A stretch of DNA of 64,000 nt from an uncultured Gemmatimonadales bacterium (GTDB taxonomy: Bacteria; Gemmatimonadota; Gemmatimonadetes; Longimicrobiales; Gaopeijiaceae), in contig CAWELD010000003.1 of assembly GCA_963809895.1 (NCBI GenBank), forward strand, positions 896,001 to 960,000. Reading direction: 5' to 3'. Of the stretch, positions 4,451 to 58,079 are shown piece by piece (the first letter of the stretch is position 1; each line of letters opens with the position of its first letter). Under the pieces are notes generated by a model. The model ran no database searches. It worked only from the letters and a program-made list of their open reading frames with translations, and had not been told where the DNA came from. The position numbers were made by a program, and so were the translations under genes.

Positions 4451-4906
4451 ATGTCGTCCAAGCGCGAGCGCCAGACGGCCATCATGGAGGTGATCCGCGA
4501 GCACCGGATCACGAGCCAGGAGGGCCTGCGAGAGCTCCTGATGGAGCGTGGCATCGACGTCACCCAGGCCACGGTGTCCCGCGACGTTCGTGAGCTACGT
4601 CTGGTCAAGGTGCCCGACGCCGAGGGCGTCTCGCACTACACGCTGCCCGAGGAGTGGGAGAACACGCCGCCGCTGGAGACGTTGCTGCCTACCCTGTACC
4701 AGTCCGCGGAGGGCACGCGTAACCTGCTGGTGATTCGGACCATGACCGGGGGCGCGCAGGCGGTGGCCCTGGCCATCGACTGGGAGGAGTGGCCCGAGGT
4801 GCTCGGGAGCATCGCCGGCGACGACACCATCCTCCTCATCTGTCGCGAAGACGAGCAGGTGGAGGTGGTCCAGCAGCGTCTGCGGGAGATCGCAGGGCAG
4901 GGCTGA
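4451..4906 (+). CDS. argR: Arginine repressor
   Basis: VTQATVSRDVREL and GSIAGDDTILLI motifs; next to the arg genes. Confidence 0.95.
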   Translation: MSSKRERQTAIMEVIREHRITSQEGLRELLMERGIDVTQATVSRDVRELRLVKVPDAEGVSHYTLPEEWENTPPLETLLPTLYQSAEGTRNLLVIRTMTGGAQAVALAIDWEEWPEVLGSIAGDDTILLICREDEQVEVVQQRLREIAGQG

Positions 4907-4930
4907 GCCGCGGCTGGAAGGAACGAAGGA

Positions 4931-4961
4931 GGCCGACCTCTACGGGGTCGGCTTGTTTTTT
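4931..4961 (+). terminator. Intrinsic terminator after argR
   Basis: GCCGACCTC-TAC-GGGGTCGGC hairpin followed by TTGTTTTTT. Confidence 0.75.
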
Positions 4962-5043
4962 ATGCACCATCGGCCTTCGCCTTGTGAATCCCCGCGGTCC
5001 GCTACAGGATGGGAGTGGCACTCCCATCGTCCATCGCCCTCGA

Positions 5044-5082
5044 CCCTTGTGTTCATGCAGCAGGAATGTATTTTTATGCCCA
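5044..5082 (+). promoter_or_regulatory. Tandem ARG boxes (ArgR operator) before argC
   Basis: TGTATTTTTATGCC (5067-5080) plus a weaker box ending ATGCA 21 bp upstream. Fits TGMATWWWWATKCA with the 18+3 spacing. Confidence 0.75.
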
Positions 5083-6056
5083 TGAATGCACTCTCTGGCC
5101 CCTCCACCACCGTGGGTGTGGTGGGGGGGAGTGGCTATACGGGGCTCGAGGTCCTGCATCTGCTGGCACGCCACGACGGCGTGCGCGTCGGCTTCGCCAC
5201 GGCCCGCAGCGACGCGGGCAGCGCGACCCCGGTAGCAGGGCTGGACTTCAGCGAGGCCCACGGCGATGTCGTGTCGGAGGCCGACCTGCTCTTCCTCTGT
5301 CTGCCCCACGGCGCCGCCGTATCGTGGGTCGAGGAGGCCCGGGCCGCCGGTACGCGCGTCGTGGACCTGACGGCGGACCACCGGCCCGGCTCGGGGCGCG
5401 AAGCGGACGTGGTCTACGGTCTTCCGGACCGGTCACCGGCCGGATTGTCCGACGCGCCGGTGGTGGCCAACCCCGGCTGCTATCCCACTGGGGTGATCCT
5501 GTCGCTGGCGCCGCTGCTCGAGGCCGGGCTTCTCGACCTCGGCCGGCCCGCGGTCGTCCACGCCGCCTCGGGAGTCACCGGCGCAGGACGCTCGCCCCGC
5601 CGTGACCTCCTGTTCGCCGAGGTCCACGGGGATTTCCGGCCCTACGGTCTGGGCAACGACCACCGGCACCTGCTGGAGATGCGCGCCGCGCTGCCGGGAC
5701 TCCAGCTCCTCTTCACGCCCCACCTGCTACCCGTGCCGCGGGGCATCCTGGAGACGATGGCGGTGCCGGTGCGGCCGGGGGTCGACGCGGACACGGTGCG
5801 AGCGCTCTGGCGCGCGGCCTATGACGAGAGCCCGTCGGTCCGGGTGCGCGACGAGGCCCCTTCGCTGGGCCGGGTGGTGGGGACCGACGAACTGTTGCTC
5901 TCGGTCCACGACAACCAGGGCCTGACCGCGCCGACCCTCACGCTGGTGGCGGCTTTCGACAACCTGGGCAAGGGTGCCGCCGGCCAGGCGGTCCAGAACA
6001 TGAACCTCATGCTCGGCTTCGATGCCGGGAAGGGTCTTCGATGCGGACGGTGGTGA
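5082..6056 (+). CDS. argC: N-acetyl-gamma-glutamyl-phosphate reductase
   Basis: GGSGYTG, LCLPHG, ANPGCYPT and DNLGKGAAGQAVQNMN. The start could be 5076. Confidence 0.95.
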   Translation: MNALSGPSTTVGVVGGSGYTGLEVLHLLARHDGVRVGFATARSDAGSATPVAGLDFSEAHGDVVSEADLLFLCLPHGAAVSWVEEARAAGTRVVDLTADHRPGSGREADVVYGLPDRSPAGLSDAPVVANPGCYPTGVILSLAPLLEAGLLDLGRPAVVHAASGVTGAGRSPRRDLLFAEVHGDFRPYGLGNDHRHLLEMRAALPGLQLLFTPHLLPVPRGILETMAVPVRPGVDADTVRALWRAAYDESPSVRVRDEAPSLGRVVGTDELLLSVHDNQGLTAPTLTLVAAFDNLGKGAAGQAVQNMNLMLGFDAGKGLRCGRW

Positions 6057-6802
6057 AGGTGGGAGGACGCGTCGTGGAGGATCCCGACGCGCTCGAGGTC
6101 CTGGCGCGCCGGCTGGGTTCGCTTCCGGGGCAGCCCGTCGTGGTACACGGCGGCGGCTCCGCCATTACGGAGTGGCAGGCCCGCGCCGGTGTGCCGGTGG
6201 CCTTTCAGGACGGCTTGCGCGTGACCTCGCCCGAAGGCATGGAGGTCACGGCCATGGTCCTCTCGGGGCTCATGAACAAGCGCCTGGTCGCCGCGCTCCT
6301 GAGCGCCGGGGAGCCGGCAGTGGGCCTGTCCGGAGAGGATGGAGCCCTGCTGCAGGCGGCGTGGAAGGACCGGGAGCGTCTCGGCGAGGTCGGCGAGGTC
6401 GTAGCCGTGAACCCCACGCCCATCGCTGCGCTGCTGGCGGCGGGACTCCTGCCGGTGGTGTCACCGGTGTCGCGGGGACCCGACGGCCGTCCCCTAAACG
6501 TGAATGCCGACGAGGCGGCCATCGCCCTGGCCGTGGGGCTGAACGCGCATCGCCTGCTGCTCGTTTCCGACGTCGACGGGGTGCTGGTGGACGGCATGCC
6601 CCGGGGCATGCTGGATCCGGCGGGCGCGGACGATCTCCTGGACAGCGGCGTCGTCACGGGAGGCATGGCCGTGAAGGTGCGGCAGGCGTTGGTCGCCGCC
6701 CGGGCCGGGGTCGAGGTCCGCATCGGCGGTCCGGCCATCCTGAACGACGACTTCGCGGGCACCCGTATCCGGTCGGCCTCGCGCGCCGAGGCGGTGGCGT
6801 GA
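6041..6802 (+). CDS. argB: Acetylglutamate kinase
   Basis: VVKVGG, VVHGGG, NVNAD, SDVDGV and GGMAVK. Confidence 0.93.
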   Translation: MRTVVKVGGRVVEDPDALEVLARRLGSLPGQPVVVHGGGSAITEWQARAGVPVAFQDGLRVTSPEGMEVTAMVLSGLMNKRLVAALLSAGEPAVGLSGEDGALLQAAWKDRERLGEVGEVVAVNPTPIAALLAAGLLPVVSPVSRGPDGRPLNVNADEAAIALAVGLNAHRLLLVSDVDGVLVDGMPRGMLDPAGADDLLDSGVVTGGMAVKVRQALVAARAGVEVRIGGPAILNDDFAGTRIRSASRAEAVA

Positions 6803-7983
6803 GCGGAGCCGCCGTGGATCAGCGCGCCGGGCTTCTGGGGCTCTACGCCCCGCCCGAGCCCCTGTTCGTGGCCGGTGACGGAGCCTGGCTCATCGACGGC
6901 GAAGGGAAGCGCTACCTCGACTTCACCGCGGGCATCGCCGTGAACGCCCTGGGCCACGGCAGTCCCGTGGTGGCGGACGCCGTGCGCGAGGCCCTGGACA
7001 CGGGCTTGATCCACACCTCGAACCTCTTTCGCACCACCCCCGCGGAGCAGCTCGCCGCGGAGCTGATCGACGTCACCTTCCCAGGCGGCGTGTTCTTCTG
7101 CAACTCCGGCGCCGAAGCCGGCGAGGCGGCCTTCAAGTTCGCGCGGCGCTGGGCTCGCGCCGCCGGTGGACCGGACAAGCACGGCATCGTGGCCTTCCAC
7201 GGCTCGTTCCACGGTCGACTCTTCGGCACCCTCGCGGCCACGGATCGGCCGGCCTACCGGGAGCCCTTCGAGCCGCTCATGCCCGGTGTTCGCTTCGCCG
7301 ATCTCGATGACCTCTCCACGCTGGACGCCGCCGTGAGCGGCGCCGGCACGGCCGCCGTGGTGGTGGAGCCGGTGCAGGGTGAGGGCGGTGTGCGCCCCGT
7401 GCCCCCGGAGGTTCTTCGCCACATCCGGGATCTGTGTGACGCCCGCGGCGTGGCGTTGATCTTCGACGAGGTACAGTGCGGATACGGGCGCACGGGCGAC
7501 CTGTTCGCGTACGAGGCCTCGGGCGTGCGCCCGGACCTCCTCACGCTGGCCAAGCCCATGGCCGGTGGACTGCCCATGGGGGCGGTGGTGGCGGCGCCCC
7601 ACATCGCCGAGGCGCTGAAGCCCGGCGATCACGCGACCACGTTCGGGGGTGGACCGCTGGTGGCCACCGTGGCGCGCGCCGTCCTGCGCACCCTCTCCCA
7701 GCCGGCGTTTCTCGACGGTGTGCGCGAGCGCGGGCAACGACTCGAGCACGCACTGGAGGAACTGGCGTCGCAGGCTCCGGGGGTGCGCGCCTTGAGAGGG
7801 CGTGGGCTCATGCGAGGCGTCGTGCTCGACGGTCCGGCCGCGCCGGTGGTAACCGAGGCCAGGGAGCGGGGTCTTCTCGTCTGCTCGGCCGGCCCCGACG
7901 TGGTGCGTCTGGTACCGCCCTTGAACATCGATCTGGACCTGCTGGACCGGGGCGTGGACATTCTGCGCCGTGTCCTCTCGTGA
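6799..7983 (+). CDS. argD: Acetylornithine aminotransferase
   Basis: DFTAGIAVNALGH, NSGAEA, FHGR, DEVQCGYGRTG and HATTFGG. GTG start overlaps the argB stop. Confidence 0.93.
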   Translation: MSGAAVDQRAGLLGLYAPPEPLFVAGDGAWLIDGEGKRYLDFTAGIAVNALGHGSPVVADAVREALDTGLIHTSNLFRTTPAEQLAAELIDVTFPGGVFFCNSGAEAGEAAFKFARRWARAAGGPDKHGIVAFHGSFHGRLFGTLAATDRPAYREPFEPLMPGVRFADLDDLSTLDAAVSGAGTAAVVVEPVQGEGGVRPVPPEVLRHIRDLCDARGVALIFDEVQCGYGRTGDLFAYEASGVRPDLLTLAKPMAGGLPMGAVVAAPHIAEALKPGDHATTFGGGPLVATVARAVLRTLSQPAFLDGVRERGQRLEHALEELASQAPGVRALRGRGLMRGVVLDGPAAPVVTEARERGLLVCSAGPDVVRLVPPLNIDLDLLDRGVDILRRVLS

Positions 7984-8561
7984 GCGCGGCCGCACCCCTT
8001 GCGCTCTCCGAGCGCTCCCGCAGGGCCACGCTCGGCGACACCGCCGCCATGAGCGCCCTCATCAACGGCTATGCGGCCCAGGGCCTGATGCTGCCCAAGT
8101 CGGTGCCCGAGTTGTGCCGCTTCTTCCGGGAATACCGGGTGGCGACGTCGTCCAGCGGGGAGCTCCTCGCCTGCGGCGGATTGAGGATCTACACCCCGGA
8201 CCTCGCCGAGATCGTGGGCCTGGCCGTGGCGCCGGCGTCCCAGGGCAGGGGCCTGGGCCGCGTTCTCGTCGAGGAGCTCACCGAAGACGCACGCCGGCTC
8301 GGAATCGGGCGGATCTTCGCCATGACCTTCGAGGCCGACTTCTTCGGGCGTCTCGGCTTCCACCCCGTGACGCGGGACAGCATTCCGGAGAAGATGGCGG
8401 CCGATTGCAGGAGCTGCGCGCGCCGTGTGGGGTGCCAGGAGATCGCCGTCGCGCGCACGCTCGCCCCGCTGCCCCGGAGCGTTGCGGGGTGGCCGCGTGG
8501 GTCGGACGCACGGGCGCTTCGCCCCCTGCGGGTGTTGACATCATACAGTCATAGTGTATAA
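7980..8561 (+). CDS. argA: Short GNAT N-acetylglutamate synthase
   Basis: GNAT acetyl-CoA motif QGRGLG, FFGRLGF and a C-terminal CxxC...C cluster typical of short ArgA; located in the arg operon. Confidence 0.75.
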   Translation: MSAAAPLALSERSRRATLGDTAAMSALINGYAAQGLMLPKSVPELCRFFREYRVATSSSGELLACGGLRIYTPDLAEIVGLAVAPASQGRGLGRVLVEELTEDARRLGIGRIFAMTFEADFFGRLGFHPVTRDSIPEKMAADCRSCARRVGCQEIAVARTLAPLPRSVAGWPRGSDARALRPLRVLTSYSHSV

Positions 8562-8570
8562 TTATGCCCT
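8532..8570 (+). promoter_or_regulatory. Consensus sigma70 promoter overlapped by tandem ARG boxes
   Basis: TTGACA (8535-8540)-N16-TATAAT (8557-8562). Box TGTATAATTATGCC (8555-8568) and a weaker box ending ATACA 21 bp upstream. Confidence 0.85.
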
Positions 8571-8605
8571 GATGCGGGATCGTGGATCTCGCGTGGGAAC
8601 CATGA

Positions 8606-8697
8606 CGGGACCGGGGGCAGGACTGAAAGGGAGCGATCCCACCGGCGCCTTGGCGGGAGGCGTCCGGCGACCTGACCCCCGGCCCGGCTTCTTTTTT
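8606..8697 (+). ncRNA. Candidate structured cis-regulatory leader RNA (three-way junction plus U tract)
   Basis: P1 8606-8621/8671-8686; P2 GGGA-GCGA-TCCC (GNRA loop); P3 8642-8667; then CTTCTTTTTT. Confidence 0.5.
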
Positions 8698-8736
8698 CAC
8701 CCCACGGCGCGGTCCGGCGCCCCCACCCCGGACGCG

Positions 8737-8919
8737 GCCAGCGAGTTGGCGACCTTCGGCGCCAGCGACTACGATCACGCGGACGCCGCCGGGTTCATCC
8801 GGCTCTTCGGTCTGCCCGTGCGCGCCGCCGCGGCCCTCCAGGCCACCCGGAACGGGAATCACCGGGCTGGAGACGCGGTGGGCGCGTTGTTGCGCGAGGT
8901 GGCGGGCCTGGGAGTCTGA
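8737..8919 (+). pseudogene. argG: 3' remnant of argininosuccinate synthase
   Basis: ELATFGASDYDHADAAGFIRLFGLP matches the ArgG C-terminal helix. It lies directly before argH and the catalytic part is absent. Confidence 0.75.
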
Positions 8920-8977
8920 GGTCCGTTCCGGTCGCAGACCGGGGGCGCATCGACACTCTTCCATCCCGCCACGATCC

Positions 8978-10382
8978 ATGAGCCTGTCCGACGACACCCC
9001 GAAACCCGCCGGCGCCCTCTGGGGAGGCCGCTTCGAGGGCGGCATGGCGCCGTCCATGATCCCCCTGAACCTCAGCCTCGACGTGGATCGGCGCCTCTGG
9101 CGTCAGGATCTGCGTGGGAGCCGGGCCTGGGCCACGGCGCTGGGGCGCGCCGGTGTGCTGTCGGAGGATGAGGTCGACGCCCTCCACCGGGGACTGGACG
9201 CCGTGAAGGCGCGCCTGCAGGCCTGGACCTGGGGAGGCGAGCCCGACGAGGACATCCACTCGCTGGTGGAGCGGCTTCTGCACGAGGAAGCGGGACCGGT
9301 CGCCGGCAAGCTGCACACCGGTCGCTCGCGCAACGATCAGGTGGCCACCGACCTGCGGCTCTGGGTCCGGGACGAGATCGGGCCGCTGGTGGAGGCCCTG
9401 GGGCAGTTGGCCGGTGGTCTCGTGGAGCTGGCCACCTCGGGTGTGGACCTCATCATGCCCGGGTACACGCACCTGCAGCAGGCCCAGCCCATTCGGGCGG
9501 CCCATTGGGCCCTCGCCCACGTGTGGCCCCTGCTCCGGGATCGCCGGCGCCTGAGGGCGGTGGATCGCTCCGCCGCCGAGCTTCCCCTCGGGCAGCGGCG
9601 CGGTGGCGGGGTGCCCGTTTCCGGTGGACCGGGAAGAGCTGGCGCTGGCGCTGGGGTTTCAGACCGTGAGCGCCAACAGCCTGGACGCGATCAGCGACCG
9701 GGACTTCGTGGCGGAGCTCCTCTTCGCCGGCGCGCTCCTGGGGGTGCACCTGTCGCGGCTCGCCGAGGACCTGGTCCTGTTCTCCTCGCGCGAGTTCGCC
9801 TTCGTCCGCCTGGACGACGGCTACTCCACCGGCTCGAGCCTCATGCCGCAGAAGCGCAATCCCGACGTCGCGGAGCTCAGCCGGGGCAAGAGCGGGCGGC
9901 TGACCGGCAACCTCATGGGGATGCTCACGCTGCTCAAGGGTCTGCCCACGGGCTACAATCGGGACCTGCAGGAGGACAAGTCGCTCCTCTTCGATACGGT
10001 GGACACGCTCCGCCTGGTCCTGCCGGCGCTGGCCGGCGCCGTCGCCACGGCCCGCTTTCGGCCCGAGCACATCCACGAGCGGCTGGACACGCAGCTTCTC
10101 GCCACCGACCTGGCGGACTATCTGGTGCGCCGGGGCGTGCCGTTCCGCCGGAGCCACGAAGCCGTGGGCATCCTGGTGCGCCGAGCCGAGGAGCGCGGTT
10201 GCTCGCTGGAGGACCTGGCCGACGAGGACTACCAGGCCGCGCATCCGGCCTTCGACGCCGACGTGCGCGGGGTCTTCGACTGGGACCGCTCGGTCGACTC
10301 CCGCGCGGCCCAGGGCGGGACGGCCCGGGAGGCCGTCGTGACCCAGCTGGCCACGGCCCGGGAGCAGCTCTCGGAATCGTGA
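8978..10382 (+). CDS. argH: Argininosuccinate lyase (frameshift near 9590, probably a sequencing error)
   Basis: LWGGRF, HTGRSRNDQ and GYTHLQ, then GSSLMPQKRNPD in the next frame. One extra G in the LGSGA codons. Confidence 0.93.
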
Positions 10383-57996: not shown

Positions 57997-58079
57997 GCCG
58001 GGGTGGCGAAACGGTAGACGCAGGGGACTTAAAATCCCCCGGGAGCAATCCCATGCGGGTTCGAATCCCGCCCCCGGCA
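57997..58079 (+). tRNA. tRNA-Leu (TAA)
   Basis: Acceptor stem GCCGGGG/CCCCGGC, anticodon arm GGGGA-CTTAAAA-TCCCC, long variable arm and GGTTCGAATCC. CCA is not encoded. Confidence 0.96.

Follow-up and report, generated by a model that had tools for sequence, protein, structure and literature searches.

An uncatalogued structured RNA with an invariant loop, associated with arginine biosynthesis genes in one family of the Gemmatimonadota and probably a regulator in its own right

The window considered here, a stretch of 64,000 nucleotides from an uncultured Gemmatimonadales bacterium (G000:C3:896001-960000), contains an arginine biosynthesis locus in which argR (4451-4906) opens a cluster of five genes. 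The last of these, an argA-like acetyltransferase gene, ends at 8561 and is followed by a promoter, a structured RNA element and argH. The features of the locus are listed below by window position.

4451..8561, + strand: gene cluster of argR, argC, argB, argD and an argA-like N-acetyltransferase
8535..8562, + strand: sigma-70-type promoter (consensus scan; a TTGAC counterpart lies near 65/65 homologues)
8555..8568, no strand: ARG-box-like operator overlapping the -10 hexamer, a putative ArgR site (two mismatches to a 14-nt palindrome that was itself derived from these promoters and from known ARG boxes)
8568..8605, + strand: 5' segment of variable sequence that contains a small hairpin and the beginning of the peptide MRDRGSR (not conserved; probable start site judged from the promoter)
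8606..8686, + strand: conserved RNA core of P1, purine-rich junction, variable P2 and P3 (folding and covariation)
8606-8621/8671-8686, + strand: P1
8622-8628, + strand: junction, purine-rich
8629-8640, + strand: P2, variable
8642-8667, + strand: P3
8652..8658, + strand: GGCGGGA tip, consisting of a GGCGG pentaloop and the next two bases, a likely recognition site
8689..8697, + strand: U tract 3' of P1, probable 3' end of a released RNA (U counts in homologues)
8740..8919, + strand: 3' remnant of argG, about 360 codons deleted (comparison with the ArgG of a relative; spanning contig)
8978..10382, + strand: argH with a one-base frameshift near 9589 (extra base absent from the X1 and X4 contigs)

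A second ARG-box-like site is found at 5045-5080, just before argC, where relatives carry TTGAC and an operator.

What remains of argG corresponds to the last ~32 conserved codons of the gene (361-392 of a relative's ArgG). The deletion is real, because a 590-nt contig of run X1 spans positions 8407-8996 without a gap (98% identity, 11 differences); this contig and the presence of argG remnants at the same place in two other genomes rule out an assembly artefact. A contig of run X4 agrees with the window starting at 8742; its preceding 176 bases are different and possibly come from a strain in which argG is intact or the junction is not the same. A complete argG of another lineage, approximately 50% identical to the operon type, is located 1.66 Mb away (C3:2564888-2566120), which rules out a split or trans-spliced argG. 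The extra base in argH is missing from both contigs, each of which is under depth 5, and the frameshift is probably an assembly or strain error. Many genomes of the family carry argH with no argG in the operon, and this distribution suggests repeated replacement of argG. An earlier note on this DNA had described the element as part of the control of argG and argH; its placement before arginine genes stands, and the argG of the window proves to be only a 3' remnant, the deletion having escaped the first reading.

The promoter consists of TTGACA (8535-8540) and TATAAT (8557-8562) separated by a 16-nt spacer. It matches the consensus at 12 of 12 positions and is the sole such site between 7500 and 10000, shuffled sequences yielding 0.0 +/- 0.2. 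The ATG of MRDRGSR follows at 8572, in a frame that happens to extend through the RNA into the argG remnant. The three-way junction is both the minimum free energy and the centroid structure (ViennaRNA), with z = -1.8 for 8560-8720 and z = -4.6 for the core (8600-8700); the homologues have a median of -3.4 and 57/65 fall below -2 (40 shuffles each). A terminator scan restricted to short loops did not flag the U tract at 8689-8697. The promoter, start codon, junction, helices and U tract all lie where the earlier note had placed them, its fold by eye agrees with both computed structures, and the ArgR box it named corresponds to the palindrome at 8555-8568, which ArgR presumably binds.

Searches with the Rfam 15 covariance models at gathering threshold return a tRNA-Leu(TAA) at 57997-58079 as the only match in the window, and at E<=10 the best score within 8450-8800 is 18 bits against thresholds of 37-71. 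Ten homologous loci likewise gave no Rfam matches. Comparison with the T-box, FMN, ZTP, guanidine, lysine, glycine, hammerhead, SRP and other families identified no family match, in line with the earlier note; an SRP-like reading of P2 was rejected at 10.6 bits against 70, P2 moreover not being conserved. The host genome contains one copy of the element by both blastn and covariance model, so that a genome-wide repeat is ruled out.

A search of the element against 45 argG upstream regions produced eight matches above the inclusion threshold, from seven genomes, and in an unfitted alignment of eight sequences 10/21 pairs are changed on both sides. The covariance model built from this alignment has matches in 68/150 genomes of the host family, a family of the Gemmatimonadota. 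From 75 model matches, five were dropped on inspection (no loop; terminators or tRNA) and five more were left out at E>=0.018, leaving 65 credible copies in 64/150 genomes. In the alignment fitted to the model (A3, in which 6 of 71 rows are false hits), 90.5% of cells pair and 19/21 pairs show two-sided change; none of 500 shuffles equals this, and slid controls pair at 44-58%. A second model added five further copies, all from the genus g66. With strong covariation in the leaders of relatives, no Rfam family and a single genomic copy, the proposal of an unrecognised structured RNA tied to arginine genes is supported, and the outcomes that the earlier note had named as refuting it did not occur: the RNA is an uncatalogued family with a real fold, lineage-restricted and probably regulatory.

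The distribution of the family is patchy. The RNA was not found in 86/150 searched genomes of the host family, nor in the 19 other genomes of the host's genus that were searched, and at least three genomes (G064, G061, G107) have lost the arginine genes as well as the RNA. No credible copy occurs outside the host family in 150 genomes of the phylum, where the weak matches inspected are coding sequence or plain hairpins, nor in 99 genomes of two sister families. A scan across all species, covering 80 loci from at least 120 pattern matches, gave three full-length model matches; all are Gemmatimonadota MAGs, which places the family in that phylum. A search with a 16-nt pattern in 201 genomes was uninformative, its reversed control matching equally often. 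The unpublished genomes G232, G185 and G292 are counted only in the tallies for this pattern and for the sister families. Other leader sequences were encountered along the way. Several RNA-lacking loci (L180-L182 in G158, G178 and G132; L201; L211) have a different leader of 150-250 nt leading from the same promoter to argG/argH, possibly another or a degenerate element. Loci L052, L054, L058 and L060 share a segment of ~80 nt with a ribosome-binding site and start codon at its end; its 16-nt pattern appears five times in G224 and looks like the end of an insertion sequence. At L219-L222, in several genomes of the stand-alone clade, a similar hairpin plus U tract and a long leader are found upstream of gdhA.

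Across the homologues, TTGAC with a -10-like hexamer 16-18 nt further on is present within 250 nt upstream of 65/65 copies (a count made without a shuffled control), mostly 20-60 nt from the RNA. The operator palindrome is matched with two or fewer mismatches in 34/65 and with three or fewer in 45/65. Length to the U tract is 124-147 nt (10th-90th percentile), and the tract itself has at least six U in the best 8-nt window in 45/65 copies and five in 16. P1 is a long helix with one G-rich and one C-rich strand, P2 is free to vary, and neither the length nor the sequence of the junctions is constant. Conservation is confined to the tip of P3, with GGCGG in 65/65 and GGCGGGA in 64/65 copies. The tip is closed by Y.G and U-A pairs, and the loop is predicted to be open (>0.8) in 54/65. 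The 5' partners of the two bases 3' of the loop vary within the limits that pairing sets (U.G in 57, C-G in 7, U-A in 1). Such restriction of conservation to an exposed loop and two 3' bases is typical of a site that is recognised, not of a pocket for a ligand. In genus g66 (six copies) an internal loop takes the place of P2 and the U tract is mostly missing, and P1, P3 and the tip are retained; the minimal unit is therefore a rod showing one loop.

Gene context further defines the element. The next gene is argG in 39 of 65 copies, an argG remnant followed by argH in 3, argH in 13 and an eroded argH in 1; no arginine gene follows in 7, and 2 copies lie at a contig end. Thus argG, its remnant or an intact argH stands directly 3' of the RNA in 55/63 readable contexts. 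The argG start is 12-107 nt past the RNA, TTGAC occurs in 0/39 of these gaps, and in relatives that lack the RNA the same promoter runs straight into argG. From this it follows that the RNA is a leader and that argG needs read-through.

Stand-alone copies are found in several genomes. In G048, G100, G082 and G045, argR is followed by the promoter and the RNA, which face a convergent aroF, and the next gene is rpiA in G139, fba in G087 and an unrelated gene in G120. No match to argG or argH was obtained in G100, G082 and G045, which are 93-96% complete. Six such RNAs keep the loop, the fold and the operator (0-2 mismatches), with 16/36 pairs changed on both sides in an unfitted alignment, and the ArgR proteins of their genomes are only 71-84% identical. 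In G079 a perfect RNA precedes an eroded argH remnant, reduced to fragments of 46-49% identity. G048 is sister to the argH-bearing G072 (support 99) in a five-gene tree, which is disturbed by two tonB paralogues and was used at its well-supported tips only; argH was therefore lost more than once while the RNA was kept. The reverse situation is seen in three g22 genomes (L286-L288 in G044, G147 and G170), where argR has been cleanly lost between trx and the promoter and the operator has decayed (six mismatches), with the RNA intact before argG. The RNA is kept independently of its neighbouring genes.

Taken together, we favor a model in which the RNA is a leader under ArgR control that in most cases is set free as a stable molecule of ~125-150 nt and acts in trans via its loop; we assign this reading a probability of roughly 0.45. 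A released RNA displaying its loop is preferred because the element persists where no arginine gene follows. Also in its favor are the invariant exposed loop, which provides a conserved seed as expected of a trans-acting sRNA, and the lack of a competing fold. ArgR with arginine represses its promoters. By analogy with this established biology, the operator would allow ArgR and arginine to close the promoter and low arginine to open it. As covariation and folding show, the transcript forms a long rod of P1 and P3 with P2 as an optional side arm and GGCGG open at the tip. In most lineages the U tract would end a portion of the transcripts, leaving a stable RNA that P1 closes, whereas the remainder would read through into argG/argH, there being no room for another promoter. 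The released RNA might then act in trans via the 7-nt tip, whose partner could be a protein or a target RNA carrying the complement UCCCGCC, and most plausibly would serve to spare arginine when it is scarce. Trans action would explain why the RNA is kept when arginine genes go. Several observations count against this model: no conserved target was found, the six g66 copies lack P2 and mostly lack a U tract, so that release by termination is not universal, the three g22 genomes retain the RNA without argR or operator, the RNA was not found in more than half of the family genomes searched, and at least three genomes lost it together with the arginine genes. Hfq was not found in 5/5 genomes, so pairing with RNA would need chaperone-free loop kissing. 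Among the three options offered by the earlier note, an ArgR-repressed sRNA fits best, given the persistence of the RNA with no arginine gene after it.

Several other readings of the element must be weighed against the released trans-acting RNA. On its invariant U-A pair the tip forms a 7-nt loop that can be read as Y32-G33-G34-C35-G36-G37-G38, with GCG as an arginine anticodon. The leader could then be a protein-bound cis attenuator whose tip mimics tRNA-Arg, which we regard as unlikely. As long as its tRNA is charged, free ArgRS would occupy the leader and change argG read-through or translation, uncharged tRNA-Arg would draw ArgRS off, and released copies would be ArgRS decoys. C35 and anticodon position 36 (G36, or U36 in yeast) are reported as arginine identity elements, and the thrS operator provides a precedent for an mRNA anticodon mimic (PMC9976931); C35 and G36 are both present in the tip. 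C35-G36-G37 (65/65) matches the loops of the host tRNA-Arg(ACG) and tRNA-Arg(CCG), and the sole 7-mer change among 65 copies gives A at position 38, as in those tRNAs. In most copies ~10-12 nt separate the loop from the junction, and its distance to the U tract is 28-39 nt. The argS gene is present in 5/5 genomes tested, and a sensor that stands by itself would agree with the survival of the RNA in g22, where ArgR has been lost. However, position 33 is G where tRNAs have U, the flanking Y.G is pairable in 65/65 and so favors a 5-nt loop, and the RNA has no invariant counterpart of A20, on which recognition by E. coli ArgRS mainly depends (PMC9976931). A C-G/U match at two loop positions would arise by chance in about 1 in 8 cases by our own estimate, a pattern check did not place the RNA at argS, and no synthetase-bound leader on a biosynthetic operon was found in the literature searched. 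A purely cis role also leaves the stand-alone copies unexplained. A version in which the anticodon mimic recruits ArgRS both to report tRNA-Arg charging to argG/argH in cis, with neither T-box nor leader peptide, and to form an ArgR-controlled decoy kept even by arginine auxotrophs is rather unlikely as well.

Alternatively, the element might be a structural leader only, a stable rod with a leaky terminator or RNase site that sets the level of argG/argH mRNA and also terminates argR, with no ligand and no trans role. P1 is indeed very stable and shows no switch: a median of 19.6 and a minimum of 8.4 kcal/mol would be needed to open the 12 nt that precede the U tract (61/65 copies; equilibrium folding only), the RNA directly follows argR in stand-alone genomes, and it is often lost. 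Such a role is nevertheless improbable, since it accounts neither for a loop that stays unpaired and invariant in many genera while all stems turn over, nor for the promoter and operator kept in stand-alone genomes. The same stability counts against a metabolite riboswitch in which closure of P1 at the U tract would depend on arginine, citrulline, argininosuccinate or ornithine, as does the lack of any competing fold or antiterminator within 8 kcal/mol (61 copies, equilibrium folding). The preponderance of argG, its remnant or argH next to the RNA, the need of argG for read-through and retention after ArgR loss in g22 speak for a riboswitch, but column counts over 65 copies reveal no conserved junction bases, and g66 can dispense with both P2 and the U tract. 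Stand-alone copies would have nothing to switch (7/63 have no arginine gene next, four of these facing a convergent gene, and one precedes an eroded gene), and among 70 copies the RNA is never found before a transporter or an unlinked arginine gene. Caution also applies to any binding signal, as arginine is reported to give misleading ones with RNA (PMC7266159). The riboswitch-like element proposed in the earlier note is thus at best weakly supported, and we consider it quite improbable. That note had also raised an attenuator in which ribosomes read Arg codons in a leader peptide, prompted by MRDRGSR with three Arg in its first seven codons in the window. This is hardly credible, because an upstream frame with at least three Arg in ten codons is present in only 4/65 leaders, no ATG precedes P1 in 35/65, no reading frame is shared through the loop (12, 9 and 9 of 65), and no antiterminator is formed.

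The released RNA can be compared with known systems. Hallmarks of the T-box are the stem I motifs and the UGGN-ACC antiterminator bulge. Like a T-box, the element leads an amino-acid operon and has a U tract at its end, and its loop holds CGG (an Arg codon) and UGGC; unlike a T-box, it has no Rfam T-box match, stem I motifs or UGGN-ACC bulge, and in 7/65 copies C replaces the U of UGGC. The Sinorhizobium rnTrpL is an attenuator-derived sRNA whose levels rise in abundant Trp and which requires a leader peptide with Trp codons (PMC6614838). Both RNAs are 5' leaders of amino-acid biosynthesis genes, released by termination and active in trans (release and trans role being putative here); in contrast to rnTrpL, the present RNA has no conserved uORF, carries an ArgR operator, is expected to increase when Arg is scarce and outlives its operon. 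ArgX of Lactococcus lactis is a 66-nt RNA, arginine-induced and CcpA-repressed, proposed to block arcC1 and reported as not found outside L. lactis (PMC6586332). Stand-alone copies resemble ArgX in having their own promoter right after argR and a link to arginine metabolism. The RNA of this family differs from ArgX in size (120-150 nt), in traveling with argG/argH rather than argR and in that its candidate arcC pairing site is not general. In the E. coli thrS operator two anticodon-like arms regulate the synthesis of the cognate synthetase (PMC9976931), and the leader hairpin described here could similarly present anticodon identity elements to a synthetase. It would do so with one loop, with G for U33 and before biosynthetic genes, and synthetase binding is hypothetical in this case. 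By analogy, the RNA would work most like rnTrpL or ArgX, possibly like the thrS operator; it has no leader peptide, the opposite expected response to its amino acid and no Rfam match, and so is a member of none of these systems.

A search for a trans target at the gene starts of chosen genes found no conserved mRNA target. Gene starts of the host genome show no enrichment of the motif TCCCGCC (56 of 4214 predicted genes; controls 37-101). The tip complement is missing before gdh in 5/5 stand-alone genomes and is not conserved before pdaD, OTC or argS (3-5 genomes each). A perfect complement at 8963-8971, 15 nt before the argH start, was rejected, as such a site is found in 6/79 argH and 0/93 argG upstream regions. 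The best lead is the carbamate kinase gene arcC, although apparently not a general one. CCCGCC lies before arcC in 7/27 RNA-bearing compared with 2/19 RNA-lacking genomes (4/50 loci unread), and the host genome has an arcA-arcC pair (C3:972149-974342) with the tip complement in its 50-nt gap. CCCGCC and a purine run before the arcC ribosome-binding site are common to five related RNA-bearing genomes, G045, G100, G110, G075 and G079. The tip is also complementary to the last 9 nt of tRNA-Sec (C3:1127790-1127886, minus strand, in the host genome), which is present in 5/5 genomes tested (including L292-L295) with an identical 3' end. This pairing is attributed to chance, the end being identical even where the loop differs and the pairing U being C in 7/65 copies.

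No comparable RNA-level control of bacterial arginine biosynthesis genes was found in Rfam or in the literature searched. Neither one supplement of PMC8632094 nor PMC11109978 in its main text mentions argG or Gemmatimonadota, and the validated amino-acid riboswitches listed in the available text of PMC5584792 are those for glycine, lysine and glutamine. The RNA is probably a regulator in its own right, often kept after arginine genes have been lost. The family offers approximately 70 natural variants that share the invariant 7-nt tip, together with a minimal form without P2 and natural knock-outs of argR and of argG/argH, and these make ligand binding, ArgRS binding and capture of an RNA target cleanly testable. 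Any positive result would add a layer of arginine control in a poorly studied phylum, five genomes of which yielded no Hfq.
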